A stretch of DNA of 64,000 nucleotides, from positions 1-64,000 of IMG/VR virus record IMGVR_UViG_3300014205_005221, one strand, 5' to 3'. The notes under the pieces were generated by a model, which was given only the letters and a program-made list of their open reading frames with translations, did no database searches and was not told the origin of the DNA. The position numbers and the translations under genes were made by a program. Below are positions 1 through 62,887 of the stretch, piece by piece (position 1 is the stretch's first letter; each line of letters begins with the position of its first letter). The DNA is from a virus (lineage: Duplodnaviria; Caudoviricetes).

Positions 1-261
1 CACGTCGGACGCCACGTAGCCCCACGTGCTGGAGCCGTTGAGATTGACCGACGCCGTGACCGTGCGCGGGCCCGTCGCGATCACAGAGATCGACTCCACC
101 ACAGCGGTGAACTGGCGGAACAGGTCGCCGTCGGCCCAGTCCCGGTGGTCGAGCCCATCGCGGTAGGCCACAGCCTGGCGCTGCGCCTCGACCGCGACCA
201 GTCGGGCCAGCTCCATGTCGCCATCGGAGAATCGGTCGGTGTATCCAGCGGTGTTCGTCAT
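1..261 (-). CDS. MTNT-tagged hypothetical protein, runs off the window edge
   Basis: ATGACGAACACC at 261; TTGCCT-N17-TAGTCT-N6-ATG promoter; frame open to position 1. Confidence 0.75.
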   Translation of the reverse strand, partial: MTNTAGYTDRFSDGDMELARLVAVEAQRQAVAYRDGLDHRDWADGDLFRQFTAVVESISVIATGPRTVTASVNLNGSSTWGYVASDV

Positions 262-305
262 GAGATAAGACTAGCACAGCAACACCAGCAAGGCAAGCAA
301 CCGAG

Positions 306-346
306 CAAAAGAAATCCCCGGGCAGCGGGAGGCAACCCGGGGCAGC
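306..346 (-). terminator. intrinsic terminator
   Basis: CCCCGGG...CCCGGGG hairpin followed by ATTTCTTTT on minus strand. Confidence 0.75.
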
Positions 347-359
347 GGAACCGAGCCCG

Positions 360-707
360 TCAGTCCTTGAAGCCGAGGTAGGGCCAGTACACGATGGTGT
401 CAAGCCCCATGTTGTCGACCGACATGCGGGAAGCCATGCCCTCGAAGATCGACGCCAGCTCCAGCTGGTCCTGCTCGAACTGCGCGTCTGACTCCTCGTC
501 ACCGTCCAGAGCCTCGACCTCCTCGCGGATGGTCTCGGCGTGGCCCAGCAGCGAGGTCTTGACGTCGTAGTAGGGGCCCTCGATCACGATGCCGACACAG
601 CGAGAGCCGAACATGCCTCGTCCGGAGTAGTCCTCGCGGATGTCGGTGTAGGCGACCAGCTCCAGGGCCGACTCGAAGTCGTAGCGGGAGATTTCGGTGT
701 TCGTCAT
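360..707 (-). CDS. MTNT-tagged hypothetical protein, paralog of 7556-7900
   Basis: own promoter and tag; DYSGRGMxG and DxMGLxTxxYxP motifs shared with 7556-7900. Confidence 0.85.
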   Translation of the reverse strand: MTNTEISRYDFESALELVAYTDIREDYSGRGMFGSRCVGIVIEGPYYDVKTSLLGHAETIREEVEALDGDEESDAQFEQDQLELASIFEGMASRMSVDNMGLDTIVYWPYLGFKD

Positions 708-752
708 GAGGTAAGACTAGCACAACAGGTGCAGCAAAGCAAGCAACTCAGC

Positions 753-791
753 AAAAGAAAGGGGGCCGGATCCCCGCAGGAACCCGGCCCC
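753..791 (-). terminator. intrinsic terminator
   Basis: GGGGCCGG...CCGGCCCC hairpin plus T tract. Confidence 0.7.
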
Positions 792-805
792 GTCCGACCC
801 GGAGG

Positions 806-1318
806 TCAGCCCGTCATCGTGACCATGAGCCCGATCCCGTGGTTGGCACCGCCACACGCACAGGTGCAGGTCGCGCCCACAGCAGCGAGGCAAGAGCTGT
901 TGCACTTGTGCTTCGCGGCCGTCGACATGGTGCCGACCAGCTGCGCAGCGCGGACCCGGACCGGCTTCGCACCGTGGTTGGAGCACTTGAGGACGAAGTA
1001 CGCGTCCTTGATCGCGTGCGTCTTGCAGCCCTTGCGGGGACAGGAAGCCGACCAGCGGTTGAACTTCTTCGTGACCGGAGCCTTCGGGGCCGCCTTGGGC
1101 AGGGCCGGTGCGGGCGCCGTGTTGGCCGCAGGGGCGACGAAAGCGGGCAGGGCGACCACCGGAGCGGTGGGAGCCAGGTTGCAGGTGCGCACCGCCTTGA
1201 TGTCGATGTGGCGGAGCTGGACCCGGGAGCCGTTGTCCCAGTGCGAGCACTTGGAGCAGACCGGGCCGGTCAGCGTGTGAGCCGGGATGGTGTGGGCGGG
1301 GGTTCCGGTGTTCGTCAT
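806..1318 (-). CDS. MTNT-tagged Cys-rich, putative Zn-binding protein
   Basis: CxxC pairs and CNSSC..CTCACGGANHG; TTGACT-N17-TAGTCT-N6-ATG. Confidence 0.8.
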   Translation of the reverse strand: MTNTGTPAHTIPAHTLTGPVCSKCSHWDNGSRVQLRHIDIKAVRTCNLAPTAPVVALPAFVAPAANTAPAPALPKAAPKAPVTKKFNRWSASCPRKGCKTHAIKDAYFVLKCSNHGAKPVRVRAAQLVGTMSTAAKHKCNSSCLAAVGATCTCACGGANHGIGLMVTMTG

Positions 1319-1427
1319 GTCTAAAGACTAACCCAGCAAGGCAAGCAAGTCAAGTATTTCAGCCAAGATTCTTTGGACAGAGAAAACCCCGCCACCCGGG
1401 AAGGCAGCGGGGCCGTGAGTCAGGAGG

Positions 1428-3873: not shown

Positions 3874-4056
3874 TCAGCGGCGGTCATCAATGGACGAGGT
3901 GTCCAGGTCCGCGCACACGTAGAACAGCGACCCGGACGCCGTCCAGCACGATCGGTCGTCCGCAGCCTGCACCTCGGGGGCGATGACCGACAGCACGGCC
4001 AACACAAAGATCAGCGAGCCGAGGGTGCCGACCAGGTAGCGCACGGTGTTCGTCAT
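3874..4056 (-). CDS. MTNT-tagged small secreted or membrane protein
   Basis: tag ATG 4056; hydrophobic N-terminus ending VQA-A. Confidence 0.7.
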   Translation of the reverse strand: MTNTVRYLVGTLGSLIFVLAVLSVIAPEVQAADDRSCWTASGSLFYVCADLDTSSIDDRR

Positions 4057-4099
4057 GCGCATGACATTACAGCATGTCAGCAATACAAGCAAGTCGAGA

Positions 4100-4353
4100 T
4101 TGTCGAATAGGCAGGAATGGGGCGGCGCTGCGTGGGGCTGTCGAAACGCGTAGCGGTGGCATGTAGGGGGGTTGTCGAAATGGCGCGGCACGACGTGCAC
4201 GGACAGGGGAGGGGCTGTCGAACTGGGCCGACGTGACACGGCGCGACTCGGCGTGGGTCGTCGAGATGGCCGGGGACGAATGGAAGTGCACCGGGTTGAC
4301 GTGGGTCGTCGGGAGAGATGCGGCGGACGGCGGGATCAGGGGCGGACCTGTCA
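4100..4353 (-). repeat. pentamer-periodic array C (about 6 CGAC-delimited units)
   Basis: GTC(G) delimiters on + strand at 4102, 4140, 4174, 4217, 4260, 4308, 4350; G every 5 nt between them. Confidence 0.8.
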
Positions 4354-4424
4354 AGGGTTTAGCCTGCCCGACAAGCGGGACTTAGAGCAGCCGGAACCTA
4401 TCTCGGCCACCCCAGTCCTACCCC
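4350..4424 (-). promoter_or_regulatory. GGG-TAGGAC promoter plus conserved structured leader of array C
   Basis: homologous to 30500-30580 and 32922-32997. Confidence 0.7.
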
Positions 4425-4425
4425 A

Positions 4426-5031
4426 TCACCAGGCCAACCGAGCCGTCCGCACCCAACTCTCGACCTCGTCGAGATGGTGATCCTCGATGCCGGTCGACGG
4501 GTCCACGTGCAACAACAACGTGGGCAGGTTGCGGCGAGCGCGATCCCACCCGGACAGCTCACGAGCACGGATCTTGCGCGGCGAGTTGAAGCTGTCGTCG
4601 AGCCAGCACAGCGGACGACCAGCAGCGAAGTCGATCATCGCCGGAAACTTCCACAGGTCACGACGCGGGTGCCCGTGGAAATCCACCCACCGCAGCCGAG
4701 GAAGACCCAGAGCCGGTCCGATGACCGTGTTGCAGTTGTGTTCCCACAGCGATGCCCAGACCAGCTCCACATCCGACTCCCGCGACGTCCACGCCAGCGC
4801 GTCCCCGTGCCAGCCCGCCAGATCCAGCCGGGAATACGGGTGCCACGTCGAGCCCGGACGATACGAGATCCGATCCCGAAAGCTCACCGGGCGGTAGCCG
4901 CCCTGCTCCTTGGCATCGAGCTTGAGCTGCTTGAGCGGACGGGCGTACGCGTTGAGGGGACCGTCCACGTCGAGAGCAACGATCGGGGTCGGGAGAGTGG
5001 GCTTGTGGTAGGTACGTCGGGTGTTCGTCAT
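4426..5031 (-). CDS. HAD-superfamily phosphatase (RNA-repair-associated type), MTNT-tagged
   Basis: LDVDGPL motif I, LVWASLW, WLDD; tag ATG 5031. Confidence 0.8.
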   Translation of the reverse strand: MTNTRRTYHKPTLPTPIVALDVDGPLNAYARPLKQLKLDAKEQGGYRPVSFRDRISYRPGSTWHPYSRLDLAGWHGDALAWTSRESDVELVWASLWEHNCNTVIGPALGLPRLRWVDFHGHPRRDLWKFPAMIDFAAGRPLCWLDDSFNSPRKIRARELSGWDRARRNLPTLLLHVDPSTGIEDHHLDEVESWVRTARLAW

Positions 5032-5067
5032 GCTAGCAAGTGTAGCATATGTCAACATGTCTAGCAA

Positions 5068-5180
5068 GTTGCGCACCGTCAGGGGGTCGAACCCATTACC
5101 GCAGGTGACACTGCAGCAGCCGCCAACCGGCTACGGCCCGGTGAGGTCACCTGTCAACAGTGCCTCACCACGTCTTCAAC
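5068..5180 (-). ncRNA. putative structured ncRNA with a T-loop
   Basis: own TTGCCT-N17-TAATCT promoter, no ORF; CAGGTGAC/GTCACCTG stem and GGGTTCGACCCC. Confidence 0.55.
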
Positions 5181-5207
5181 AACTACAGATTAGCACAGCA
5201 AGTGCGA

Positions 5208-6363: not shown

Positions 6364-6684
6364 TCAGCCGACGACCAGCAGAGCCGCAGCTTCCCACGCC
6401 TGGTTGAGCCGGTGCATGCCCAGCTCGGTGATCTTGAGAGTGGTCAGCCCGTCCAGCTCACCGGTGTACTTGCGCTCCTCGACGAGCCCGTTGCGGACCA
6501 GGTCGGCCATGCCCTCCTGGCGCTCCACGGAGAACCCGGACAGATCCGCCGGGGTCTCGGCACCCTTGGAGACCCGCTCCAGCCAGGACAGGTAGCGGAA
6601 CGCCATCGCCGGGTGGTCCCAGTGACCGTCCTCGGTCTGCGAGGTGACAACGTAGTTGGCGGGAACGTTTTCCGTGTTCGTCAT
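6364..6684 (-). CDS. MTNT-tagged protein, possible winged-helix
   Basis: LVRNGLVE...LKITELG pattern; TTGACA-N17-TAGTCT-N6-ATG. Confidence 0.7.
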   Translation of the reverse strand: MTNTENVPANYVVTSQTEDGHWDHPAMAFRYLSWLERVSKGAETPADLSGFSVERQEGMADLVRNGLVEERKYTGELDGLTTLKITELGMHRLNQAWEAAALLVVG

Positions 6685-6728
6685 GGGAGAAGACTACACC
6701 AGCAAGGCAAGCATGTCAACAAGTTGAG

Positions 6729-6765
6729 CAAAAAAAAATCCCCCCGACCCGGAGGCCAGGGGGAT
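6729..6765 (-). terminator. intrinsic terminator
   Basis: ATCCCCC...GGGGGAT hairpin plus long T tract. Confidence 0.8.
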
Positions 6766-6781: not shown

Positions 6782-6976
6782 TCAGACCAGCACGCGCTCC
6801 CGGCGGTACCGGATCGTCGGGTTGGCGACCGGAACCGGCTCCGGGCGGAACCGAGGGGCCGACGCCGCCTTGACCAGCGAGACCGCCATGGTCTTGTAGG
6901 TGACGCCCTCCGGGGTGGTGACCAACAGGATCGCGGTGCCGTTGTCGTGACCGATGACCTTCGTGGTGTTCGTCAT
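6782..6976 (-). CDS. MTNT-tagged hypothetical protein
   Basis: tag; TTGACT-N17-TAATCT-N6-ATG. Confidence 0.75.
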   Translation of the reverse strand: MTNTTKVIGHDNGTAILLVTTPEGVTYKTMAVSLVKAASAPRFRPEPVPVANPTIRYRRERVLV

Positions 6977-7079
6977 AGGTAAAGATTAGCCCAGCAAGAC
7001 GAGTAAGTCAAGTATTTCAGCAAGATTCTTTAGACAGCAAAAAGCCCCTACCCGGAGGCAGGGGCCAGATGCGTGCAGG

Positions 7080-9225: not shown

Positions 9226-9231
9226 ATACAG

Positions 9232-9431: not shown

Positions 9432-9494
9432 GGTCCAGGGGAGACGTCTTCCGTTGTTTATGACGAACACCGTCGGGCGCCTCAACCCTGGACC
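9432..9494 (-). ncRNA. hairpin sRNA with a loop complementary to the MTNT 5' tag
   Basis: GGUCCAGGG/CCCUGGACC and GAGGCG/CGUCUC stems; apical CGGUGUUCGUCAU. Confidence 0.75.
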
Positions 9495-10136: not shown

Positions 10137-10415
10137 TCAGTCCTCCCAGCCGATGAAAACGTTGATTGCCCGCTCGACTGTCATACCCGCGTCCTCGTCA
10201 GCGTGCTCCAGGATCTCGGTGACCCGGGAGGTCAGCTCGATCGCAGCTACCTCGTCCCAAGGCTCCACCTTCATGAAGACGAGCAGCTGCTCATCGAAAC
10301 GATCCGCAAGGTTACGAGCCCCCTTGTAGCAAGCGTTGAACGCAGCCTTCTGGGCGTCCCAGAGCGCCTGCAGGAGAGCGAGATCGGCCTCGGTCTGAGC
10401 TTCGGTGTTCGTCAT
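10137..10415 (-). CDS. MTNT-tagged hypothetical protein
   Basis: TTGACA-N17-TAGCTT-N6-ATG; similar to 10724-10960. Confidence 0.8.
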   Translation of the reverse strand: MTNTEAQTEADLALLQALWDAQKAAFNACYKGARNLADRFDEQLLVFMKVEPWDEVAAIELTSRVTEILEHADEDAGMTVERAINVFIGWED

Positions 10416-10446
10416 GCCTTAAAGCTACACCAGCAAGGCGAGCTTG

Positions 10447-10692
10447 TCAAGCAAAAAGCGCGATGTCCGCATCCATCACAGACCTACCCGGATGGTCCAC
10501 GAGCCAGACAGCGACCCGTTTCGCAGCCCCAAAACCTCCGTACGCGACCTGGAGCGCGGCGAAGAACACCGACTCCAGCGCAATCTCATCCGTGGCAGAG
10601 ACCAGACCCAACCGGGCCAGCTCGGCGTTGGAGTTATACATGTCATCCAACGCCGAGACCACTTCATACCTCACACGTTCGGTGTTCGTCAT
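10447..10692 (-). CDS. MTNT-tagged hypothetical protein
   Basis: TTGACT-N17-TAGTCT-N6-ATG. Confidence 0.8.
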   Translation of the reverse strand: MTNTERVRYEVVSALDDMYNSNAELARLGLVSATDEIALESVFFAALQVAYGGFGAAKRVAVWLVDHPGRSVMDADIALFA

Positions 10693-15325: not shown

Positions 15326-16234
15326 TCACCAGATCCACGGCGAGCCATTCACCAGATCCGACGCCACGGCGAACGAACGACGCTTCTTCGACTTCGCGTA
15401 GCAGTCGAAGCACTTGTGCCCCAAACCAAAACTCTGCGAAACAGAGCAGAACTCCACCTTAGCGCACTTGAGACAGAACGTCGCAACCGTGCGTGACTTT
15501 GCGGTAAGCAGACCCATGTTGCCCTGGCACGGCTTGCACACCAGGAACTGCCGACCACCGGCCACCGTGCGCGCCGCGTCCACACCGAGAACAGTGGTGT
15601 CGTTGCACCACACGCACGGCGCCGCCTGCAGCCCGGTAGAGCGAGCAGCCAGACGCGGAAGCGACTTCTGATGCACGGAGAACAACGCCAGGAAAGCCAT
15701 TGCGATGCCCGCATACGACGACCCGGCGGAGTAATTACCCATCGCGAAGAACATCAAAGCCAGCCCGACCAGCGTGCCGAAACAGATCACCAGCACGACC
15801 GAGTACACCCGGCCCAACATCCCGACCTTGGTCTTCTCCGGAACAGGGACCGCCTTGGGAAGGTCGTCCACAAGATTCCACAGGTGCGGAGACATCCCGA
15901 GCGGATCCCACGACGGAGGCTTGAGCGGCTCCGGCTCGTCCACCTTGACGTCGACCTCATCCGCGAGATCGGCATACGGAGTCGACACGCTCGACTCGAC
16001 CTGCTCCGACCACGAATCAATCGTCGCCATTAAATCCGCAAACGACGGTCCCCTGTGACGGGTCCGACCATTCACCGCGTGCGACGAGATGACATCGACG
16101 TTGCCGTCGATGGTGGTGCGGACCTCGACGTTCATCGCGTCGATGGTCGCCTTCACCTCAGCCGCCTGCGCATTCAAAGCCCGCAAAGAGGCTTCCAGCC
16201 GCTCGGTCTCATCCGACCAGGAGGTGCTCGTCAT
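15326..16234 (-). CDS. membrane protein with a C-terminal Cys-rich region, tag variant MTST
   Basis: two TM segments and four CxxC motifs; GGG-TAGGAC-N6-ATG. Confidence 0.7.
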   Translation of the reverse strand: MTSTSWSDETERLEASLRALNAQAAEVKATIDAMNVEVRTTIDGNVDVISSHAVNGRTRHRGPSFADLMATIDSWSEQVESSVSTPYADLADEVDVKVDEPEPLKPPSWDPLGMSPHLWNLVDDLPKAVPVPEKTKVGMLGRVYSVVLVICFGTLVGLALMFFAMGNYSAGSSYAGIAMAFLALFSVHQKSLPRLAARSTGLQAAPCVWCNDTTVLGVDAARTVAGGRQFLVCKPCQGNMGLLTAKSRTVATFCLKCAKVEFCSVSQSFGLGHKCFDCYAKSKKRRSFAVASDLVNGSPWIW

Positions 16235-16243
16235 AAAACTGTC

Positions 16244-16525
16244 CTACCCCACAGCACGAGGAAAAGCACGCAACACCCGCAGCTCAGCAGGAGACAGCAC
16301 CACCGCCTGCGGGCGCAGCGAATCCTCGTTCCACAGCACCTCGACACGGTCGGTGTCCACCAGCTTCACGACACGTCCAGTCAAGAGCTGGAAGTTGATC
16401 GAGCAGACCTCGGAGCCGGTGAACACCGGACGGTTGGCCGAATCCCGCACAAGCGAACCCGGCTGCTCGGTAGCCATTCCCCACTCCAGCATCTGACGAG
16501 CGCCAGGAAGGATTCGAGCAGCCAT
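16244..16525 (-). CDS. hypothetical protein
   Basis: GGAGG RBS. Confidence 0.6.
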   Translation of the reverse strand: MAARILPGARQMLEWGMATEQPGSLVRDSANRPVFTGSEVCSINFQLLTGRVVKLVDTDRVEVLWNEDSLRPQAVVLSPAELRVLRAFPRAVG

Positions 16526-22274: not shown

Positions 22275-22562
22275 TCAGCCCTCCAGGTTCACAAGCACGT
22301 AGAGGTCGCGCATGGCCTCGTAGACCTGCGTCGCCGCGTGCACCGAACCCTCGAACTCGACCCGGGTGGCGAAGAAGTCATCCTCGCCGTCACCCTTGGC
22401 CTCCGCCTTGACCGTGAGAGCGCCCCGGTAGCCCAGGCTCAGCAGGTGCGTGACCGTGGTCTGCCAGTACGGAAGCTCGTCCTGGGACAGGATCAGGAAC
22501 GCGTTCACGTAACCGGGGGCGACGGTGAACGGGGGCTTGGGGAGAGTCTGCGTGTTCGTCAT
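22275..22562 (-). CDS. MTNT-tagged hypothetical protein
   Basis: TTGCTT-N17-TAGTCT-N6-ATG. Confidence 0.8.
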   Translation of the reverse strand: MTNTQTLPKPPFTVAPGYVNAFLILSQDELPYWQTTVTHLLSLGYRGALTVKAEAKGDGEDDFFATRVEFEGSVHAATQVYEAMRDLYVLVNLEG

Positions 22563-22668
22563 GTCCAAAGACTAACACATGTCGGCAAGGCAAGCAAGTC
22601 CGACATACAACAAGGGGCCCCACCCTCCCCCAGCGAGAAGGTGAGACCCCTTGTCGGATCCCCCGCGA

Positions 22669-27316: not shown

Positions 27317-27790
27317 TTATTTAATTCTCCACCACCCGAAGGTAGCAGCCGTACGTCGTGTATGGCAATTTGCACAAACTACGTGGCACTTTGCCATTTC
27401 AGCTCGGAGACGCTTAGGAGAACCACCGCTGACAAGGTAAGAAACATTTGCAACCTTGTCGCCCTGATGATCAAACTGAAGAACAACAATGTCGTCTTCA
27501 CCACAATCAACACAGGGATGTTCAATTAAGTAAGCACGAATAATTTCTCGATTGCGATCTCGTTGAGCATTTGCAGTCGCAAGCCTTTTAGGGTTCTGAT
27601 AAGCTTTTGTCACAATATACGACGCAGCATTGTCAAGAACTCTACATGGTTTGCAATTAGCTTGCAAACCATCATTGCGAGCTGCATTCTTACCAAAATC
27701 ACTGGCCGGTACAAATTCTTTGCACCGGCCACATCGCTTCTTACCGGGCGGAACCACGTCCGGCTCTGCCCATCTCACCGCCTCGGACAT
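27317..27790 (-). CDS. HNH endonuclease
   Basis: CGRC..CKPC, CVDCG..LQFDH, CANCH; AT-richer than its surroundings; TTGCAT-N17-TACTCT-N7-ATG. Confidence 0.8.
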   Translation of the reverse strand: MSEAVRWAEPDVVPPGKKRCGRCKEFVPASDFGKNAARNDGLQANCKPCRVLDNAASYIVTKAYQNPKRLATANAQRDRNREIIRAYLIEHPCVDCGEDDIVVLQFDHQGDKVANVSYLVSGGSPKRLRAEMAKCHVVCANCHTRRTAATFGWWRIK

Positions 27791-27835
27791 GGCAGTAAGA
27801 GTAACAACATTCAGAGTCAAATGCAACTAAGAATT

Positions 27836-28217: not shown

Positions 28218-28523
28218 TCAGACGTACTCTGCCGGATCAATCTTCACGAACGCCGACGGGATCAGCTCGATCGAACGCACCCAGGAACGGTCCTTCGAGA
28301 TCCGCTCCGCCATCGAACGATTGAGGTTAGCCTGCGCCGATCCCATACCACGCTGCATGCGACGGCCATTACGCTGCAGCGGATTGTAGAACGCCACCCT
28401 GCCCTGCTCGTCAAGCAGCCACCAGTAATTCTTGTAGCACATCACGATGCCCGCAGGCGAATCGGTCAGCTCTGCCACAGAAATCCAGACATAGTGATCC
28501 AGAGGAATCTCGGTGTTCGTCAT
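28218..28523 (-). CDS. MTNT-tagged hypothetical protein
   Basis: TTGACA-N17-TAAGGT-N6-ATG. Confidence 0.8.
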   Translation of the reverse strand: MTNTEIPLDHYVWISVAELTDSPAGIVMCYKNYWWLLDEQGRVAFYNPLQRNGRRMQRGMGSAQANLNRSMAERISKDRSWVRSIELIPSAFVKIDPAEYV

Positions 28524-28559
28524 GTGACTACCTTACCGTTCTTGTCAGCAGTTGTCAAC

Positions 28560-29471
28560 TCACCGGCGGTCGTCATCCATGAAGTTCTTCAGAGCCGACT
28601 TCGCGATCGGGCCCAGGAACTCGAACACCGAACTCAGATCCGGCGCGTCCTTCCCGGCCTTGTCCGTAGCACCCGGGTCAGCGGCACGCTCAGCCTTCAG
28701 CGCCTCCAGCTCGGCCTCCAGGCCCGCAATACGCGTGCGCGCCTTGCCGACCTCCTCGTGCAGGTGCAGAGCGTTCTTGCCTTCAACATCGCGCTGCTGA
28801 ATCGCTGCGGAAAGCTGCTGAGCGAGAGCCATGTTCCTCTCGTCCAACTCATTGGCTTCGCGGACCGCCTCGTCACGCTCCTTGGTCAGAGCCAGGCCCT
28901 TGCGATACGCGGTCCGATACGACTCACGCACATCGTCGAGCTGCGTCTTCAGACCAGCCACCTGACCGCGCAGCTTCAGAATCTCTTCAAACCGCTGCTT
29001 CTGATCACGTCCCTGACTTCCGGTCAAAGGCGCGTACTCCGCGTCAGCCTTACGAACCCTCTCGATAAGAACCTTCTTATCACGATTCAGGTCGTGCAGA
29101 CGATCCGTAGCCGCCTCAATGACCTCCAACGGCTCCGCCTCGCCCAACCGATCCTGATCAACCGGGGCCAGACCCTCCAACAGAGCCGCAGCAGCATCCC
29201 GCAGCTTGCCCTGCTCGATCATCCGGGACGTGTTGTCGAGATCGGTGTTCGCTTCCTGCGTTTCGGCCTGGCGCTTCCACAGGTTCGCCAGCTCGCGAAG
29301 CGCGTGGTGCGGAGCAGGCTCAGCCGACTCCAGACCACGGCGCACCGCGTCCCACAGCATCTCCGACTTGGCAGACGGGACATGCGACAGCGGCTTACCG
29401 TTTTCGTCGAAGACATCCGGGTGCATCGCAGCCGCTGCCTTACGAACCTGCCATTCCTGGATGTTCGTCAT
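28560..29471 (-). CDS. coiled-coil protein, tag variant MTNI
   Basis: heptad-rich; GGG-TAGGAC-N6-ATG. Confidence 0.75.
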   Translation of the reverse strand: MTNIQEWQVRKAAAAMHPDVFDENGKPLSHVPSAKSEMLWDAVRRGLESAEPAPHHALRELANLWKRQAETQEANTDLDNTSRMIEQGKLRDAAAALLEGLAPVDQDRLGEAEPLEVIEAATDRLHDLNRDKKVLIERVRKADAEYAPLTGSQGRDQKQRFEEILKLRGQVAGLKTQLDDVRESYRTAYRKGLALTKERDEAVREANELDERNMALAQQLSAAIQQRDVEGKNALHLHEEVGKARTRIAGLEAELEALKAERAADPGATDKAGKDAPDLSSVFEFLGPIAKSALKNFMDDDRR

Positions 29472-38986: not shown

Positions 38987-39409
38987 TCAGTCTCCTACCC
39001 TCTCAGGTGCACGATAGATTCCGCCGATGCCCTCGAACGCGTGGTAGCGATCCGCCAGGTGCATGATCGCCGACTCCACGCCGAGCACAAAACCCTGATC
39101 CCGGAGACGCTCCTCCACCGGATCGCGGTACTCCGAGGGAGCGAGCGTGTCGTTGGCGAACCGGTGTGCGCGAGCACGAGCGCGATTTATCCACTCAGAA
39201 TTATCGAAGCACAGCGCGGTGGCGTCGAGGTATTCCACGTACTCCCGTCGTCTCCGAAGCAGACTGCGCAGGATGTGCAGCTCGCGGTCCTCACCAGAAG
39301 CGTCCAGGTCGGACCTAAACACGACCTCGATGAGCCAATCGCAGAGGTCGGACACCCTCTTAGGACGGAACGTTCCATCCGAGAGATGCCCGTACTGAAT
39401 GTCAGCCAC
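38987..39409 (-). CDS. hypothetical protein (sigma-A-like promoter, no tag)
   Basis: TTGCTT-N17-TAGCTT-N6-GTG. Confidence 0.7.
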   Translation of the reverse strand: MADIQYGHLSDGTFRPKRVSDLCDWLIEVVFRSDLDASGEDRELHILRSLLRRRREYVEYLDATALCFDNSEWINRARARAHRFANDTLAPSEYRDPVEERLRDQGFVLGVESAIMHLADRYHAFEGIGGIYRAPERVGD

Positions 39410-39447
39410 GACTACAAGCTAGCACAGGTCAGCAAAGTAAGCAAGTT

Positions 39448-40305
39448 CTACTTTGCAACCTTCTGCTTGGGTCGGAAGACGCCGGTGCTCGTCGGCCTGT
39501 ATTTGGCGCAAGCGTGACGCACTGGACACCAAGAGCACGCCTTGTCGTCCTTGTTCGGTTCCGTGTCGCCACGCCAGATGTCATGAGCCATCGCCACGAT
39601 GCGAGCCATCATCGAAGACAGATCCGCGTCGGTGATGTCGACGTAGGCGATGGGATTGGTCTCCACCATGGGCTGCACGAACGCGAACGTCCGCAGCGGC
39701 ACGCCCTCACGAGCGTAATGCGCCAGCGAATAGAACACGCCCTGCCCCAACGTCTTGCGCAGGTAATCCGGGTTCGCCGTGGCCTTGAGGTCATAGGCAG
39801 CCCAGACCGGCGGCAACTTCGACTCTCGCACCAGGATGTCCATGCCGCCGACCAGCATGATCTGCGCCGTCTCCCCGTTGAGATCCGGGATGCGCAACGG
39901 CACCCGGAATCGGGCCTCGGGCTCGTACTCGTAGGGAATGACTTCCTTGAGCAGGAACGGCTCCAACCGCGTCACCAGCTGACGCACCCACTCCGCCATC
40001 TCCGCGCGGTCGGTGTCACTCTTCCAATTCACGACACCGTCGCTGGTGCGCTTCGCTTCCTCGATCTCGTGATCAATCATGAAGTCGACCCAGGTCGCCA
40101 TCTCGCCCGGGACCTGCTGGTCGGCTTCGAGCCAGCGGCGCATCACACGGTCGGCCACCGTGCCGTGAAAGAACGGACGGATGTTCGTGACTGGGTTCTT
40201 TTTCTTCTCCCGAAACAGAAACGCCCGCTGCTTACATGCAGTATGCGCTTGAAGTGCTGACCAACTAATCTTAATTGGCTTTGGGCCGTCGCATTTTGTA
40301 GTCAT
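39448..40305 (-). CDS. RecB/Cas4-like PD-(D/E)XK exonuclease
   Basis: SWS.L...C, HGT..D, GGMD..YDLK, CSWCPVRHAC. Confidence 0.8.
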   Translation of the reverse strand: MTTKCDGPKPIKISWSALQAHTACKQRAFLFREKKKNPVTNIRPFFHGTVADRVMRRWLEADQQVPGEMATWVDFMIDHEIEEAKRTSDGVVNWKSDTDRAEMAEWVRQLVTRLEPFLLKEVIPYEYEPEARFRVPLRIPDLNGETAQIMLVGGMDILVRESKLPPVWAAYDLKATANPDYLRKTLGQGVFYSLAHYAREGVPLRTFAFVQPMVETNPIAYVDITDADLSSMMARIVAMAHDIWRGDTEPNKDDKACSWCPVRHACAKYRPTSTGVFRPKQKVAK

Positions 40306-57680: not shown

Positions 57681-59819
57681 TCAACCCTTGACGCACAACA
57701 GGGTGTCGAGCTTCGCGATCGGGCGGACCAAGTCGGTCTGATTCGCCATCACAGCAGCAAGATCCTTGTATGCCGCAGGAATCTCGTCCACGATCCCGGC
57801 GTCCTTACGGCACTCCACGCCCGCCGTCTGCTCGACCAGATCCGCCTCGGTGAACGTCCGACGCGCCTCGCCACGGCTCATCCTGCGACCAGCGCCGTGC
57901 GATGCCGAACAATAGCTGTCCTCGTTCGCCAAGCCCTGCACGATGAACGACCCCGTGCCCATCGAACCCGGGATCACGCCGAGACGGCCGTCGCGCGTCG
58001 AGATCGCACCCTTACGGGTCACGATCATGTCCTTACCGTCGTACGTCTCCTCGGAAACGTAGTTGTGGTGACAGTTGATCTCGGAACCGAACTTCGAGAT
58101 TCCGGTGATCTCGGTGAACGCCTTCTTCACCAGACCCATCATCACCGCGCGGTTGCGGAACGCGTAGTCCTGCGCCCACATCAGGTCATTACGGTACGCG
58201 TCCATCTCCGGAGTGCCGAGGAAAAACGCCGCGAGGTGCCGATCCGGGACGTCCTGGTTCTGCGGAAGTGCAGCCGCCACCTCGATGTGGCGCTCCGCCA
58301 ACTCCTTGCCCACGTTGCGCGACCCGGAGTGCAGCATCAACCAGATCTGGTCAGACTCGTCCTTGCAGACCTCGACAAAGTGATTGCCCCCTCCGAGCGT
58401 TCCGATCTGGTTCATGACGCGATCGGTGTAATCGCTCGCCGACAGACGCCGAGTCGTCATCTTGCCGACACTCAGGTTGTCGTAGCTCGCGAAGAATCCC
58501 GACCAGCCGCCAATGCGCGACGCCTGCATGCGGCCGTCGGTACCGAGGTAGGTCGTGTGCGAAGACTGACCCACCGGCACCGCAGCCTCGATCGCCGCGC
58601 GCAGCGGACCCAGGTCATCAGGAAGCTGATCGATTTCCATGGTGACCGGAACTGCGTTCATGCCACAGTTTCCAGTCATAACAATGTTGCCTCCACGCCG
58701 CATCACCCAGAACCCGGACGGAACCGTGAAACAGTAAGCGCGACCATCCGCAGACGGAACGCGAACGATCTCGCTCTTGGGCGTCCCCATCATGGTCACC
58801 CGGCGATTGGGCTGAGCGAACACCCGGAAGTCCAGCGTGTCGTCCTCGCTCTTGTCCTCGCGAAGGACAGCCCGGAACCCGACGGCCGTGAACACGTAGT
58901 GCATGAAGTCCGCCGACGCACGATCACGCGTGTAGAAACAGCGATCCTCCGCGTTACCGTCCCACAACAAACACTCTTCGGCAATCACAGCGAGCTGCTC
59001 CCAGGACGCCTCCCACCAGTCGCCCGAGAACGACTTCGTGAGGCGCGGAGGAGCAAACCGGAACGTGGTGACGCCGCCGGACTCCGAACGCGAGGCATCG
59101 ACGCCCGATGCCGCGAAAAGCTGCTCAGCCCGATCGATCTTGCGCTGCTTCTTGAGCCGCAGAACAGCCCTCCGGCCATCCAGATGCGCGTCCGCGTGCA
59201 CCATGACCTGCACACGAATCTGCTCGTCGGAAAGAGGAAGCTCCGTCTCGATCTCCGGCTCAAAACTGGTCTCGAACTCCGCCTTGATGCCGACCTTCAG
59301 CCGGGTGTGCTCAGCCTCGAACTGCTCAGCGAGTAGTACCTCCTGCACACGACGCCGGTCACGACCAACCATCCGCCACACCAGCATCCGGTGATCCGGC
59401 GACAGCATCTGGTCAATGCCGTACTTCGTGCGCAGCCACAGGAACTCCGGACAGTCCCTCACGACAAACCGGCTGGGCTCCACGAACTGCCCGCGCGAGG
59501 TCTCCGGGTCGTACTGCATGACCGGACCGCCCGTGTAGTCGGCAATACGCCGCCACCCCTGCGGAGACAAATATTCCGAATCTGCATCGACACAGCCGAT
59601 GTCAACTCCCACCGCAGCAGGACAGACAGCGTTGCGCGACGCGATGACCGTGCCGATCGTCGCACCCTTGCCTGCGTGAACGTCCGGCATCACCGCCAGG
59701 CCCTCGACCCACGGCATGTCCGCCACCGTGCGGATCTGGTTCAGCGCGGTCCACTCGACGTCGGTCGGGTCGATCCACATCCGGACCGGCGACTTGGTAC
59801 CCGCCATCTCGTGATACAT
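57681..59819 (-). CDS. rtcB: RtcB RNA ligase with an intein
   Basis: MPDVHAGKG, DIG|CGM, GTLGGGNHF.E, HSGSR, HHNY, SHGAGR, E.P.AYK. Confidence 0.93.
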   Translation of the reverse strand: MYHEMAGTKSPVRMWIDPTDVEWTALNQIRTVADMPWVEGLAVMPDVHAGKGATIGTVIASRNAVCPAAVGVDIGCVDADSEYLSPQGWRRIADYTGGPVMQYDPETSRGQFVEPSRFVVRDCPEFLWLRTKYGIDQMLSPDHRMLVWRMVGRDRRRVQEVLLAEQFEAEHTRLKVGIKAEFETSFEPEIETELPLSDEQIRVQVMVHADAHLDGRRAVLRLKKQRKIDRAEQLFAASGVDASRSESGGVTTFRFAPPRLTKSFSGDWWEASWEQLAVIAEECLLWDGNAEDRCFYTRDRASADFMHYVFTAVGFRAVLREDKSEDDTLDFRVFAQPNRRVTMMGTPKSEIVRVPSADGRAYCFTVPSGFWVMRRGGNIVMTGNCGMNAVPVTMEIDQLPDDLGPLRAAIEAAVPVGQSSHTTYLGTDGRMQASRIGGWSGFFASYDNLSVGKMTTRRLSASDYTDRVMNQIGTLGGGNHFVEVCKDESDQIWLMLHSGSRNVGKELAERHIEVAAALPQNQDVPDRHLAAFFLGTPEMDAYRNDLMWAQDYAFRNRAVMMGLVKKAFTEITGISKFGSEINCHHNYVSEETYDGKDMIVTRKGAISTRDGRLGVIPGSMGTGSFIVQGLANEDSYCSASHGAGRRMSRGEARRTFTEADLVEQTAGVECRKDAGIVDEIPAAYKDLAAVMANQTDLVRPIAKLDTLLCVKG
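58668..59594 (-). mobile_element. intein (309 aa) in RtcB
   Basis: CVDADSEYL start, SPDHRM block B, YCFTVPSG block F, TGN|C end. Confidence 0.85.
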
Positions 59820-60268: not shown

Positions 60269-60317
60269 GTCAGCAACCTAACATAGTCTGACAAAACAAG
60301 CAAGTAGTCTAAGCAAA

Positions 60318-60356
60318 CAAAAAGCCCCGGCTCCGCCGTGAGGGAGAGCCGGGGCT
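60318..60356 (-). terminator. intrinsic terminator
   Basis: AGCCCCGGCTC...GAGCCGGGGCT-TTTT. Confidence 0.8.
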
Positions 60357-60365
60357 AAGAACAAC

Positions 60366-60455
60366 TGCAAGGAGAGCGGGTCCGCTGAACTATAGGAGTC
60401 AGCCCTTGCGGGCCGATTAGGTTAGAAGGAAGCGGTAATAACCCATTGCCTTGCA
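60366..60455 (-). ncRNA. Y-RNA-like ncRNA, copy 2
   Basis: TGCAAGG/CCTTGCA stem; CAATG..GCTTCCTTCTAA..CGCTCT core. Confidence 0.6.
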
Positions 60456-60462
60456 TGTACTA

Positions 60463-60561
60463 GGTGTAGTGCAGATGTGCGGAGAGCGTGAGCACTGTGC
60501 TTATTCACCAATTGAAAGTTTAGAAGGAAGCACCCTCATTGCCGCACATCTGCACTACACC
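60463..60561 (-). ncRNA. Y-RNA-like ncRNA, copy 1
   Basis: perfect 20-bp terminal stem; same core as copy 2; GGG-TAGAAC promoter. Confidence 0.65.
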
Positions 60562-60567
60562 ATAGTT

Positions 60568-62763
60568 CTACCCGACCAGCAACTCGATGAGCCGCTCCGG
60601 CGAAACAATCTCCGAACCCTCCGGAAGACCGTCCGGCACCTCGCGGCCCACGAACGTCACCGGGTGCTCCAACTCCAGCTTCTCGTCCCACAGCTCCGCG
60701 ACGGCAGCCTTCTCCATCAGCAGACCGGTGAGGTACCCAACCTTCAGGTACTTGCGCTCCAGGATCGCACGCACGAGCTGCGTCGTGGTCGACATGTTCG
60801 ACTCCACGCGGTTACCCCAACTGTCACCCTTCAGGAACAGGTGCAGCCACTTCGCCGACCAACCGTCCCCGCGCGAGAACACCAGCGGCAGCGCGATACG
60901 AGAATCCCCACGCAGCTCCGAACGCATGCGAACGGTACGCGGCTCGAACGGCATGCCCTTCTGCGAACGGTGCCGCATCTGGTAGCCGAACAGCGATTCC
61001 GCCACCTCATCGAAGCCCTCACCCGCAAACACGTTCACCTGCGGAATGACGTACTCGATGACCGGATCCAGACGGCTGAGAACGACGTCAATGAACTCCG
61101 CCGCGCCGTTACGCGACTCCGTGATGTCACCAGAGTGCGTCACAACTCCATCACGGAGCCGCGTGTACGAAACGTGCGTGACGTACTGGAAGTCCTTGTC
61201 CAGCATCAGAACCGACAGATCGAAGTCCGTGCGGTGCTTCTGCTCCCGCCAGTAGGTGAAGAACCGCAGCGTGTCGTGCGCGTCGGTATCCAACGGAGCG
61301 TGCGAGCCGCGCGGCTTCACCGCGAACCCGTTCTCCGTAGCCTTGCCCGACAGCGACAACGCTTCCCCGAACATCGCCGGGTCGATGACCAGACGCATGT
61401 AGCTCGGAGCCCGGCGCAGCAGCTCCTCGTCGATCAGCCGAGCCGCCCGCGCGATGACACCGCTCGGCAGCACCGGACGCATGTCGTCCACGACCTTGGC
61501 GCGCTTGCTACGACCGACGAACACCCGCTTGCGCTGCGGCTGGTTCCGGTTGATCAGGTGCTCGCGCAACGACAGCAGCACACGGGCCGAAACCTTCGGG
61601 AACACCTCGCCCAGCGTCGAGAGCAGCCCCTCGAACTGACCCGAGGATGCGTTGCGCAACAGCTGATCGGTCTGGCGCACGAGAGCACCCGGAGCCACGG
61701 ACAGAGCCCGCGCTGCCGAGACCACGTCACCGGCCACCATGAACTGCTCGAAACTCGAGTTCGGCGTCGGAATCTTCTTGTCCCGGACGACCTCCTCGAA
61801 CATGCGAACCGCGAGCGTGTACTGCGGGTAGTCATGCGGGTGCAGCGCCTTCGCAGCTCGCTTCCACACCTCGCGGCGCTTCACGACGTCACCGACCTTG
61901 GCCCAGTCGACGAGCAGAACCCGGTGCAGCTCCAAGAGCAGCGCACGACGCTCCGGGCGCGCGAAGTTGCGGAACCGCGTCAGCCGCTCCAGCGTGACAT
62001 CACCGTCGTCGGATGCCGCCGCCATGATGCGCAGCACGTCGGTCACGGTGTCCACGCCGAGCAGGTCCCGGCCCAACACCAAGCGCAGCGCGTTGATGAG
62101 CGCGCGGTTCTCCCGCACCGGGATGACCTCCGGGTGCGGTCCGGCCAGACGCTCCAGCGCCAGCTGTCCCAGGATCTTGCGGTCGCCCTCCGACAGCGGC
62201 ACCGCCGACCCGGCCAGCTGCAAGTACAGCGAGGTGATCTCCTCGTCCAGCGTTCCGCCCAGGTGCAGCACGGTCAGCCGGTCGGTCTTGGCCTCGACGA
62301 ACACCTCGTGGGCTGCGACCAGCTCCTCGAAGGTGTGCTGGTAGCGACCGTAGGTCGGGATCGACAACAGGCTGAAGCCCGGGGAGGACAGGATCTCGTC
62401 GAGCTGCTTGGTCGTCACGCGAGCACCGACCAGCGCACCGCGCAGCGAGTCCCGCCAGAACTCCACGGTCTCGGGCACGCCCGTCGGGAAGTGCTTGAAG
62501 TACGCGTTGTGGGAGACGTGATCACCGACGATCTTGCGTGCAGCCGACAGCGTCGCCACCGACAGACGCACCGCCTCGGACCGCTCCAGACCCGCAACAT
62601 GCTCCAGCAGCGCGCGGGATCCGAGGAACCCGACACGCGCGAGCACGGCCGACAACTGCTGCGCCACGATCCGGCCATCACCAGACGGACCCTCGGACGC
62701 CGGTACGCGAAGGGTCTTCTCCACCAGTACGTCAAACATGGTTTCTCCCATGGTGCTCGTCAT
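60568..62763 (-). CDS. Ro/TROVE-like helical protein fused to a TerD-like domain, tag variant MTST
   Basis: HN..F..FP..VP, TVTDVLR, PG.L.R..D.LLR; C-terminal DFDLS, HSGDI, AEFID. Confidence 0.7.
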   Translation of the reverse strand: MTSTMGETMFDVLVEKTLRVPASEGPSGDGRIVAQQLSAVLARVGFLGSRALLEHVAGLERSEAVRLSVATLSAARKIVGDHVSHNAYFKHFPTGVPETVEFWRDSLRGALVGARVTTKQLDEILSSPGFSLLSIPTYGRYQHTFEELVAAHEVFVEAKTDRLTVLHLGGTLDEEITSLYLQLAGSAVPLSEGDRKILGQLALERLAGPHPEVIPVRENRALINALRLVLGRDLLGVDTVTDVLRIMAAASDDGDVTLERLTRFRNFARPERRALLLELHRVLLVDWAKVGDVVKRREVWKRAAKALHPHDYPQYTLAVRMFEEVVRDKKIPTPNSSFEQFMVAGDVVSAARALSVAPGALVRQTDQLLRNASSGQFEGLLSTLGEVFPKVSARVLLSLREHLINRNQPQRKRVFVGRSKRAKVVDDMRPVLPSGVIARAARLIDEELLRRAPSYMRLVIDPAMFGEALSLSGKATENGFAVKPRGSHAPLDTDAHDTLRFFTYWREQKHRTDFDLSVLMLDKDFQYVTHVSYTRLRDGVVTHSGDITESRNGAAEFIDVVLSRLDPVIEYVIPQVNVFAGEGFDEVAESLFGYQMRHRSQKGMPFEPRTVRMRSELRGDSRIALPLVFSRGDGWSAKWLHLFLKGDSWGNRVESNMSTTTQLVRAILERKYLKVGYLTGLLMEKAAVAELWDEKLELEHPVTFVGREVPDGLPEGSEIVSPERLIELLVG

Positions 62764-62887
62764 GTGTTACAAGCTAGCACAGCCAGTACAACTAGGCAAG
62801 CGATTTAACCTTGATTCTGATATGCCAATAACGAACGCCTCCGACCCAGCCGGTGAGCGGGTCGGAGGCGTTCGTTCTGCTGCAGGC

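Follow-up and report, generated by a model that had tools for sequence, protein, structure and literature searches.

A nucleotide tag shared by the starts of putatively leaderless phage genes, and a candidate antisense hairpin RNA complementary to it

Results

Tagged genes of the phage

The window analysed here, a stretch of 64,000 nucleotides, belongs to a circular 186-kb phage contig (hereafter called C1) found within an actinobacterial MAG. The other contigs of this bin harbour seven WhiB genes, and binning ties the phage to its host indirectly. Many genes of the window open with the same tag, defined as the 12 bases counted from the start codon (+1 to +12) and located inside the coding sequence. 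Neither the remaining 397 contigs of the MAG nor any of 20 related host genomes carry the tag. The tagged starts are listed below with their promoters (class A or class B, see below), together with a predicted hairpin and two untagged starts.

250..306, minus strand, class-A promoter and tag cassette, start 261; 119 aa, spans the circular junction
696..752, minus strand, class-A cassette, start 707; 115 aa
1307..1363, minus strand, class-A cassette, start 1318; 170 aa
1701..1757, minus strand, class-A cassette, start 1712; 94 aa
2068..2124, minus strand, class-A cassette, start 2079; 84 aa
2429..2485, minus strand, class-A cassette, start 2440; 89 aa
2822..2878, minus strand, class-A cassette, start 2833; 97 aa
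3139..3195, minus strand, class-A cassette, start 3150; 87 aa
3456..3512, minus strand, class-A cassette, start 3467; 75 aa
3822..3878, minus strand, class-A cassette, start 3833; 84 aa, tag variant with G at position 10
4045..4101, minus strand, class-A cassette, start 4056; 60 aa
5020..5076, minus strand, class-A cassette, start 5031; 201 aa
6270..6326, minus strand, class-A cassette, start 6281; 357 aa, ADP-ribosylglycohydrolase
6673..6729, minus strand, class-A cassette, start 6684; 106 aa, position 12 of the tag varies
6965..7021, minus strand, class-A cassette, start 6976; 64 aa
7449..7505, minus strand, class-A cassette, start 7460; 126 aa
7889..7945, minus strand, class-A cassette, start 7900; 114 aa
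8937..8993, minus strand, class-A cassette, start 8948; 44 aa, immediately preceded by the tRNA array
9432..9494, minus strand, anti-tag hairpin (predicted RNA) between tRNA-Pro(TGG) and tRNA-Leu(CAG); exact 12-nt complement of the tag
10404..10460, minus strand, class-A cassette, start 10415; 92 aa
10681..10737, minus strand, class-A cassette, start 10692; 81 aa
10949..11005, minus strand, class-A cassette, start 10960; 78 aa
14174..14205, minus strand, tag-like start 14185; class-B GGTAGGA-N7 motif upstream, codon 3 AGC
16223..16254, minus strand, tag-like start 16234; class-B motif upstream, codon 3 AGC
22551..22607, minus strand, class-A cassette, start 22562; 95 aa
24904..24960, minus strand, class-A cassette, start 24915; 211 aa, codon 4 ATC
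27779..27835, minus strand, untagged ATG start 27790; same promoter type but weaker
28512..28568, minus strand, class-A cassette, start 28523; 101 aa
29460..29491, minus strand, tag-like start 29471; class-B motif upstream, codon 4 ATC
39398..39455, minus strand, untagged, putatively leaderless GTG start of gene 39409; same promoter class, 140 aa
55739..55795, minus strand, class-A cassette, start 55750; 95 aa
57609..57665, minus strand, class-A cassette, start 57620; 89 aa
60257..60313, minus strand, class-A cassette, start 60268; 149 aa
62752..62808, minus strand, class-A cassette, start 62763; 731 aa, codon 3 AGC

Exact matches to ATGACGAACACC number 23 in the window, all but one on the minus strand, whereas shuffled windows contained 0.03 on average and never more than 1. 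The first-pass annotation had listed 31 tagged starts, and a search of the window with at most one mismatch recovered every one of them. All are on the minus strand, and each ATG opens an ORF, with products of 44 to 731 residues. These had been described as unrelated, and comparison of the 31 proteins minus their first four residues indeed revealed a single similar pair (starts 707 and 7900, 34% identity).

Conservation at the nucleotide level

The invariable use of ACG for Thr2, another early observation, holds for 31/31 starts of the window and for 37/37 across the genome, compared with 39% ACG in the gene bodies of C1 (P about 7e-16). Codon statistics covered three genomes of very different codon usage, namely C1, the relative G002 (49.5% GC) and the phage Zeta1847. 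In G002, Asn3 is encoded by AAC in 19/19 cases, as opposed to 17% in gene bodies, where AAT makes up 83% (P = 2e-15), and Thr2 by ACG in 18/18 (P = 1e-9). Similarly, Thr2 of Zeta1847 is ACG in 11/11 cases vs 11% in gene bodies (P = 4e-11). The information content of the tag is 2 bits at positions +1 to +11 and less than 0.7 bits past +12. The three-genome statistics thus strongly support the proposal of nucleotide-level conservation: the tag is conserved as nucleic acid, not as a peptide.

Promoters and start geometry

Using the strict pattern TTG(A/C)NN-N17/18-TANNNT-N6/7-ATG, we retrieved exactly 28 of the 31 starts (class A), the number given initially. The three exceptions, 14185, 16234 and 29471, have GGTAGGA-N7 instead (class B). 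SD-like words are found at 5 of the 31 starts only, each overlapping the -10 or the GGTAGGA motif, in keeping with the reported usual absence of an SD. The whole genome encodes 37 class-A cassettes and 3 tag-like starts behind the second promoter type, and strong terminators, at least 10 in number, are found between the cassettes. The end of the -10 hexamer is separated from the ATG by 6 nt in 23 of the 37 cassettes and by 7 nt in 14, with mostly C at position -1 and A at +1. As first suggested, this geometry matches that of actinobacterial leaderless genes, in which a TANNNT -10 element ends about 6-8 nt before the start codon, so that the latter coincides with the TSS, and no SD is present, and we infer from it that the tagged mRNAs are leaderless. 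Their predicted 5' ends are unusually open: the mean MFE over 45 nt is -5.3, whereas class B averages -9.9 and random segments -12.1. The promoter ahead of the tRNA array resembles both classes.

In the 186 kb, 34 of the 38 strong class-A promoters are followed by the tag, and the four others drive other products. The two untagged promoters of the same type noted initially are both real: gene 39409 has a GTG start 6 nt past TAGCTT, and the gene at 27790 begins with ATGTCC. Such cases had served to argue that the tag is not just a promoter element; the statement stands, but with 34/38 promoters tagged, two to four exceptions are a thin basis. Better support comes from the class-B starts of C1 and from other phages. 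The tag is also present in phages unrelated to C1, including the cultured phage Zeta1847, which grows on Microbacterium and in a BLAST comparison shares only DNA polymerase A with C1. Different promoters precede the same tag in G002, Zeta1847, L328 and others, and in contig G005 it follows C/A-rich SD leaders and a coupled start, implying that it goes with the start codon. Comparison with other phages shows the tag to be a feature of the start codon, not of the promoter.

Codons 2-4 are diverse in approximately 45 class-B genes of the same phage that are probably leaderless as well. In mycobacteria, a downstream element is unnecessary for leaderless translation (PMC4633059). The tag therefore does not appear to be required for leaderless translation.

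A hairpin complementary to the tag

The sole non-coding inverted copy of the tag is found at 9432-9494, in a hairpin between two tRNAs. The predicted fold (-30.4 kcal/mol, z-score -3.15) exposes CGUCAU in its apical loop, and no Rfam family matched this segment. The tag/anti-tag duplex is predicted to encompass 12/12 nt including the start codon, at -19.6 kcal/mol. Among the 12-mers repeated at least five times in C1 and G002, a reverse copy exists only for those of the tag. Two further anti-tag copies are located inside coding sequences.

We identified anti-tag elements in six tag-bearing genomes, C1, G002, Zeta1847 (candidate RNA region 44,960-45,040), L328, G030 and G028. CGUCAU has an unpaired probability of 0.8-1.0 in the predicted hairpins of the first three. 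In L328 the element lies in the loop of a strong hairpin and in G028 in that of a weaker one; in G030 it is single-stranded, flanked by two hairpins. The stems differ among genomes and the core UGUUCGUCAUA recurs. No convincing anti-tag was detected in G003 (100% complete), G027 (99%), G005 (74%) and G029, and G026 is ambiguous; about half of the checked tag-bearing phages thus lack a clear one, which implies that the tag must also have value of its own. Compensatory covariation was not found: tags ending in AAC rather than ACC are not matched by a changed anti-tag, leaving a pairing of 10 bp. Likewise, no lineage with a changed tag core was found, and variants at positions 11-12 are not tracked by the anti-tag. 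Internal variants of the tag are all wobble-compatible transitions, although ordinary transition bias could yield the same.

Discussion

The anti-tag hairpin adds a piece to the first-pass annotation, which named no reader of the tag. Its loop is exactly complementary to the tag, which suggests that a single small RNA controls all of these genes. Our best reading, to which we give roughly an even chance of being correct, is that the tagged genes constitute an early regulon of leaderless messages and that a phage-encoded antisense hairpin RNA targets the 5' tag they have in common. The tagged genes would form the class transcribed by the host RNA polymerase (sigma-A type), presumably early, each as a self-contained cassette of terminator, promoter and small ORF. 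Transcription would begin at the A of the ATG, leaving the mRNA without a leader. The first 11-12 nt, AUGACGAACAC(C), are held constant as nucleic acid, and we suggest two reasons for this. First, a C/A-rich 5' end that stays open may favour the loading of 70S ribosomes. Second, and probably more importantly, the tag may provide a common handle for the antisense RNA, which would be excised from the tRNA operon (9432-9494) in C1 and be carried by an early-gene 3' UTR, directly ahead of the terminator, in other phages. The exposed CGUCAU loop could nucleate pairing with AUGACG, and its possible extension to 12 bp would cover the start codon, so that the whole class might be tuned or shut off together. 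Dozens of targets per genome would leave the tag little room to change, which would fit its identity across distant phages.

Alternatively, the tag might act purely in cis as an optimal first 12 nt for expression, with A at +4, favourable first codons and a 5' end that is unstructured, rich in C and A and poor in U, its inverted copies playing no part in regulating the tagged genes. Unrelated phages would then have converged independently on it, for genes expressed hard at the onset of infection. We regard this possibility as serious if rather unlikely. It would account for the tag in phages with no detectable anti-tag, for its position behind C/A-rich SD leaders in G005 and for 5' ends far less structured than those of other leaderless starts, and C/A repeats past the start codon boost leaderless translation in E. 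coli (Martin-Farmer and Janssen 1999, as cited in PMC9031893). However, G at +6 does not vary, nor does the exact 11-mer, even though ACC or ACA would form no more structure, some 45 putatively leaderless genes of the same phage manage without the tag, and mycobacterial leaderless translation requires the start codon alone (PMC4633059). The tag also lacks complementarity to the 16S rRNA of the host genus, the best duplex (-10.2 kcal/mol) being weaker than the mean for shuffled tags (-12.0 kcal/mol), which speaks against a downstream box based on mRNA-16S rRNA pairing. Finally, a cis-acting role leaves unexplained the tag-specific inverted copies in or beside hairpins of six genomes.

It is improbable that the 12-mer is read as DNA, either as an asymmetric +1 to +12 operator for a repressor or class-switch protein or as an initially transcribed sequence required by the promoter. 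The tagging of 34/38 strong class-A promoters and the probable overlap of the tag with the transcription start are in line with such a site. Its copy number, asymmetry and single orientation recall the stoperators of Cluster A mycobacteriophages, DNA sites for the repressor that are asymmetric, multi-copy and in one orientation. Nevertheless, the tag is also found behind leaders, at a coupled start and behind another promoter class, and four class-A promoters drive other products without it. BLAST detects no regulator common to the unrelated tag-bearing phages, with DNA polymerase A alone shared by C1 and Zeta1847, and a DNA site gives no reason for an inverted copy in an RNA hairpin loop.

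We consider it slightly less probable still that the tag is a functionless by-product of cassette shuffling, in which promoter-plus-start modules are copied and homogenised by recombination, as modelled on the PeSL cassettes of T4-type phages. The cassettes do have the terminator-promoter-small-ORF architecture, and some are near-identical over at least 35 nt, such as 10415 and 10960, but the tag reaches 2 bits where the accompanying promoter has 0.2-1.2 bits, conservation ends sharply at +12, and unrelated promoters precede the same tag in unrelated phages. Lastly, a constraint on the peptide Met-Thr-Asn-Thr (Met removal, N-terminal acetylation, stability or targeting) is very improbable: the wobble base of codon 4 varies in G002 with Thr retained in 13/19 cases, but codons 2 and 3 are synonymously invariant against a strong opposite bias (P from 1e-9 to 1e-15).

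Comparison with known systems

The start-associated sequences (SAS) of Cluster K mycobacteriophages (Pope et al. 2011, PMC3203893) are, like the tag, short asymmetric repeats fixed to start codons and almost all in one orientation. They accompany 13-19 unrelated non-structural genes, with a single copy on the opposite strand (PMC3203893). In Adephagia, we found 16 forward SAS copies and 1 reverse copy, the latter in the loop of a long intergenic hairpin, as is the anti-tag of C1. The function of SAS was still without assignment in the literature of 2024. SAS are located 3-9 bp upstream of the start codon, include the Shine-Dalgarno core and belong to leadered genes, whereas the tag, of unrelated sequence, occupies +1 to +12 of mostly leaderless messages, as inferred from their promoters; the contrast drawn initially, a motif within the coding sequence, is therefore correct. 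The tag does not qualify as an SAS: the bases just upstream of its start codons are those of the promoter rather than a conserved 13-mer with a ribosome-binding site.

The PeSL (promoter-early stem-loop) cassettes of T4-type phages (Arbiol et al. 2010, PMC2839356) resemble C1 in their arrays of small ORFs of unknown function, each with a strong sigma-70-type promoter and a stem-loop terminator; sigma-70-like promoters and terminator stem-loops similarly surround small ORFs in C1. They differ by having no conserved coding piece and by belonging to leadered genes of Gram-negative phages, and their proposed role is in recombination, not translation control. Like the RNA proposed here, the T4 translational repressor RegA would shut off many early mRNAs together after transcription, via a site that overlaps the start codon, but it is a protein that recognises a loose A/U-rich site (reviewed in PMC3014915), and we found no protein reader of the tag.

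GcvB is a multi-target sRNA that silences C/A-rich translation enhancers (PMC3879156). One G/U-rich region of this RNA pairs with a C/A-rich element by many start codons, and that element is itself thought to aid translation, as proposed for the tag. GcvB is host-encoded and Hfq-dependent, with loosely conserved targets upstream of the start, whereas the putative anti-tag RNA would be phage-encoded and would target, at the very 5' end of the mRNA, an exact sequence of 11-12 nt that takes in the start codon. The c4 RNA of phages P1 and P7 is a phage antisense RNA that acts in trans and is cut from its precursor by RNase P; its loops pair with the translation start region of a phage mRNA, that of the single target operon icd-ant, in an immunity circuit. 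The proposed RNA of C1 would similarly be a small hairpin RNA freed by tRNA-processing enzymes, with loops pairing at translation starts, but would address approximately 40 targets with a common coding tag instead of a single operon.

Tagged cassettes in the phage genome

The tag ATGACGAACACC, a 12-nt sequence spanning positions +1 to +12 of genes from the ATG on, has 23 exact copies in the window (22 on the minus strand and one on the plus strand), for an expectation of 0.03. The 31 tagged starts listed in the first-pass annotation were all recovered with at most one mismatch, each of them opens an ORF (44-731 aa, 31/31), and its count of 28 starts preceded by TTG[AC]NN-N17/18-TANNNT-N6/7-ATG, hereafter called the class-A promoter, proved exact. 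At the three exceptions (14185, 16234 and 29471), GGTAGGA-N7-ATG takes the place of this promoter; we call class B the motif GGTAGGA or GGGTAGRA located 7 nt before a start codon. The proteins of the tagged genes are unrelated, as had been stated, with the exception of one weakly similar pair, and the small tagged ORFs lack significant Pfam families (20/20), one sub-threshold DUF4900 match being found. In the first 8 kb, we counted at least ten strong terminators between cassettes, and thus each gene forms its own terminator-promoter-ORF unit. The whole C1 phage genome harbours 37 cassettes of this kind. The initial observation is confirmed, and its interpretation as a leaderless regulon is supported, the genes being predicted to be leaderless from their geometry. 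In addition, we found a strong class-A promoter without a tag:

5040-5222, minus strand: untagged class-A promoter, whose -10 ends near 5187; downstream of it, a structured, non-coding stretch of ~130 nt that includes a tRNA-like T-arm and has no ARAGORN or Rfam call

C1 (186,050 bp, of which the window represents bases 1-64000) is part of a MAG of 2.9 Mb in 398 contigs. Seven WhiB genes are present in the remainder of the bin, which is therefore actinobacterial. The ends of C1 overlap by 7 nt; once this overlap is trimmed, the gene with its start at 261 continues across the contig junction to a full length of 119 aa and is followed by a perfect terminator and the next cassette, indicating that C1 represents a complete phage genome, circular or permuted. 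The block of tagged genes extends from ~183.2 kb over the junction to ~11 kb. The window encodes a family A DNA polymerase, an ADP-ribosylglycohydrolase and 13 tRNAs. The phage-encoded tRNAs include tRNA-Thr(CGT) (26286-26357, minus strand), cognate to the invariant second codon ACG; the repertoire of the cultured Microbacterium phage Zeta1847 consists of tRNA-Gln only, so tRNA-Thr(CGT) is no general companion of the tag. No close relative of C1 was found in the annotated phage collection. Its assignment to the Cluster M mycobacteriophages (many tRNAs, CR repeats) was rejected, as megablast searches were empty and protein matches were to distant large phages only. Similarly, the tag is not a host-wide feature: none of the other 397 bin contigs and none of 20 related genomes contains it, and a scan of genome contigs yielded single matches only, at chance level.

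Anti-tag hairpins

The complement of the tag, hereafter called the anti-tag, was found in the tRNA array of the window and elsewhere in C1, as follows:

9460-9471, plus strand: sole plus-strand copy of the tag in the window
9432-9494, minus strand: hairpin with the exact 12-nt complement of the tag, 2 nt past tRNA-Pro(TGG) and 13 nt ahead of tRNA-Leu(CAG)
9226-9345 and 9569-9737, minus strand: spacers of the tRNA array with more GC-rich structured segments, one with a T-arm-like motif, not called as tRNAs
9830-9885, minus strand: region ahead of the tRNA array with a GCTGAAA upstream element as in class-A cassettes, and a -10 region (GGGTATAAC) with similarity to each of the two promoter classes
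180,757-180,768 and 181,327-181,338, gene strand, outside the window: two further anti-tags separated by 570 nt, of which one is exact and the other has a single mismatch

The hairpin at 9432-9494, on the same strand as the tagged genes and the tRNAs, has a predicted folding energy of -30.4 kcal/mol (z -3.15). The half of the anti-tag that pairs with AUGACG is in a 7-nt apical loop, with unpaired probabilities of 0.8-0.9, and the remaining half is paired at the top of the stem. No Rfam family matched this hairpin at E values up to 1. As controls, we collected the 33 twelve-mers with at least five tag-strand copies in C1, of which only those overlapping the tag recur on the opposite strand; in the related contig G002, 1 of 14 repeated twelve-mers has an opposite-strand copy, again the tag. 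As only tag-overlapping twelve-mers have such copies, these analyses indicate that the hairpin is not an inverted cassette. The two anti-tags outside the window belong to two neighbouring minus-strand genes that lie behind a class-B motif; each encodes Gly-Val-Arg-His close to the end of its gene, an arrangement unlikely to have arisen by chance.

We also identified anti-tags in other genomes. G002 (146 kb, 49.5% GC) is a true relative of C1, with dozens of common proteins at 35-75% identity, and Zeta1847 has only DNA polymerase A in common with C1. The single inverted copy of G002 maps to the 3' UTR of a tagged gene, directly ahead of a terminator, where a 10-bp GC stem holds it in its loop. 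Zeta1847 also has one inverted copy; it occupies a hairpin loop in the interval between genes 69 and 70, and a terminator comes next. Contigs L328, G028 and G030 each have a 10-nt anti-tag, which is placed in the loop of a strong hairpin in the first, in a weaker hairpin in the second and, in the third, in single-stranded sequence flanked by two hairpins. Across lineages, the stems are wholly different and the core UGUUCGUCAUA is preserved, for a chance expectation of a 12-mer of 0.003-0.011 per strand and genome. No convincing anti-tag was found in the tag-bearing contigs G003 (complete), G027 (99% complete), G005 and G029, and an extra inverted copy in G026 is ambiguous, as it lies within a possible coding region without Pfam matches on either strand. 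None of the compared lineages shows a compensating tag/anti-tag change, and G032, a more distant relative (133.7 kb, complete) included for the covariation test, has no tag system at all. A 15-mer search of viral contigs for further anti-tags yielded 64 matches, of which that of G002 alone is real.

At the sequence level, these analyses establish three things: a class of self-contained cassettes whose geometry is leaderless, a tag that is tied to the start codon at the RNA or DNA level, and a same-strand structured element that displays the complement of the tag. We propose that the hairpin RNA would be freed from the tRNA precursor in C1, and from early 3' UTRs in other phages, that its loop would base-pair with all tagged mRNAs at their 5' ends (12 bp, -19.6 kcal/mol), and that this pairing would conceal the start codon. 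With dozens of targets the tag could hardly change, which would fit its identity among distant phages. We consider that the chances for and against such pairing of the anti-tag hairpin RNA, and the resulting masking of start codons, are roughly balanced.

Predicted leaderless starts and possible cis effects of the tag

Alternatively, the tag might be purely cis-acting, which we regard as rather unlikely. It is not needed for leaderless translation, as genes with leaderless geometry are found behind GGGTAGRA-N7 (~45 in C1 and 25 in G002) with diverse codons 2-4 and, in some cases, GTG starts. Sites of this type in the window, ~20 in all, include the following:

GGGTAGRA sites: 8586, 13377, 15249, 17528, 19934, 21494, 31945, 35316, 38712, 38992, 42435, 44859, 52158, 55387, 57062

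The Pfam signatures Sigma70_r2 and Sigma70_r4 have no match on C1, and we therefore do not assert that class B is read by a phage sigma factor. In mycobacteria, a 5'-terminal ATG or GTG suffices and is required for leaderless translation, and no downstream element was found (PMC4633059). A downstream-box function is not supported, as complementarity between the tag and the 16S rRNA of the host genus is unremarkable. The tagged 5' ends are unusually open, with a mean MFE of -5.3 kcal/mol over the first 45 nt, class-B starts and random segments being at -9.9 and -12.1, respectively, and a C/A-rich stretch after the start codon is described as a known enhancer in E. coli (PMC9031893), which makes a cis benefit of the tag plausible. 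Such a benefit would leave unexplained the invariant G at +6 and the exact identity of the tag across lineages.

Tag and promoter

That the tag is a DNA operator or a promoter element appears very unlikely, even if tag and promoter are almost inseparable within C1 alone. Using a weight matrix built from the promoter part only, we scanned both strands of the 186 kb and found 38 strong class-A sites, 34 of which bear the tag; the four others precede a GTG-start leaderless gene (39409) or apparently non-coding sequence. The first-pass annotation had concluded from two exceptions that the tag is not simply part of the promoter; this argument is thin, and it is the other genomes that uphold the claim. 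Promoters of a quite different kind precede the identical 11-12-mer in G002, in Zeta1847 with its relatives G003 and G004, and in a number of further IMG/VR contigs of 54-70% GC. Three genes of C1 and one of G002 have the tag behind the second promoter-like motif (GGGTAGRA-N7). In contig G005, one promoter type precedes one leaderless tagged gene and two genes in which a ~38-nt leader and a Shine-Dalgarno sequence come before the tag, and a fourth tag is at a translationally coupled start. The presence of the tag behind varied promoters, after Shine-Dalgarno leaders and at a coupled start indicates that it is tied to the start codon and not to the transcription start.

Two side observations concern these start regions. 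The leaders of the Shine-Dalgarno-led tagged genes of G005 (2300-2370 and 4400-4460) are long runs of C/A-rich, CACC-type repeats, whose composition continues that of the tag. In Zeta1847 (MH271320), the annotated starts of genes 43, 45, 49, 55, 60, 61, 64, 67, 70 and 71 are 15-48 nt upstream of the tagged leaderless ATG and in frame with it, and therefore the deposited N-termini of these ten genes probably run through promoters.

Nucleotide-level constraint

Homogenisation of the cassettes and a signal in the encoded peptide are the remaining readings, and both appear very unlikely. The codon statistics of C1, G002 and Zeta1847 bear out the earlier proposal that the conserved tag is nucleotide-level.

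Codon usage at tagged starts and in gene bodies
C1: Thr2 = ACG, 37/37; ACG share in gene bodies 39%; P = 7e-16
G002: Thr2 = ACG, 18/18; ACG share in gene bodies 32%; P = 1e-9
G002: Asn3 = AAC, 19/19; AAC share in gene bodies 17%; P = 2e-15
Zeta1847: Thr2 = ACG, 11/11; ACG share in gene bodies 11%; P = 4e-11

The wobble base of codon 4 is free in G002. The information content is 2 bits at +1 to +11 and less than 0.7 bits beyond +12, and the promoter positions are far less conserved. The invariance of ACG and AAC against codon bias, together with this drop after +12, indicates that the constraint bears on 11-12 nucleotides and not on the peptide Met-Thr-Asn-Thr. In the genomes compared, the feature is real, reaches cultured phages and has a specific candidate reader that can be tested, the anti-tag hairpin.

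Comparison with known systems

The nearest described objects are the start-associated sequences (SAS) of Cluster K mycobacteriophages, 13-mers positioned at the start of each of 13-19 genes (PMC3203893), described in 2011 and still without a known function in 2024. SAS precede the start codon and contain the Shine-Dalgarno core, whereas the tag is inside the coding sequence; the tag is thus not an SAS. Pope et al. reported a single complementary-strand SAS copy in four phages (PMC3203893). In Adephagia (JF704105), we found 16 forward copies and one reverse copy with one mismatch, at 58,682. A long hairpin with nearly perfect pairing, on the gene strand between genes 92 and 93 (58,632-58,744, corresponding to ~8,632-8,744 of L399), carries the latter in its apical loop. 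This is the same architecture as that of the anti-tag, in a cultured phage with existing RNA-seq (PMC11373665). The inverted copy is noted in the published papers, which do not describe the hairpin. This hairpin may be an anti-SAS RNA, and the tag/anti-tag model offers a testable idea for the role of SAS in Cluster K. As both Zeta1847 and Adephagia are cultured, the model is directly testable.

In its broadest form, which we put forward tentatively, one small phage RNA, derived from a tRNA operon or an early 3' UTR, would mask the starts of ~20-40 leaderless early mRNAs through a 12-nt tag in their first four codons; the same pair would operate in unrelated actinophages including Zeta1847, and SAS would follow the same principle, making this a widespread, undescribed post-transcriptional class switch. 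If so, a phage would be able to label an entire temporal class of genes within their coding sequences and to reach all of them with one RNA. A coding tag would solve a real problem, because leaderless mRNAs offer no 5' UTR for regulation. As a tool, the cassette combines promoter and start in one compact module for driving expression in Microbacteriaceae; should the model hold, it would come with its own RNA off-switch.

We found no published description of a coding-start tag in leaderless phage genes, in a search that covered few subscription journals. The promoter-early stem-loop cassettes (PeSL) of T4-type phages have in common with the cassettes described here the layout of promoter, terminator and small ORF, but lack a coding tag. 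The closest phage antisense RNA to the anti-tag hairpin is the c4 RNA of P1 and P7, which is likewise excised by a tRNA-processing enzyme, and the closest mechanistic analogue of the proposed anti-tag RNA is the silencing of C/A-rich enhancers by GcvB. The tag system may be viewed as a variant of two known kinds of systems, start-associated repeats and antisense sRNA regulons.
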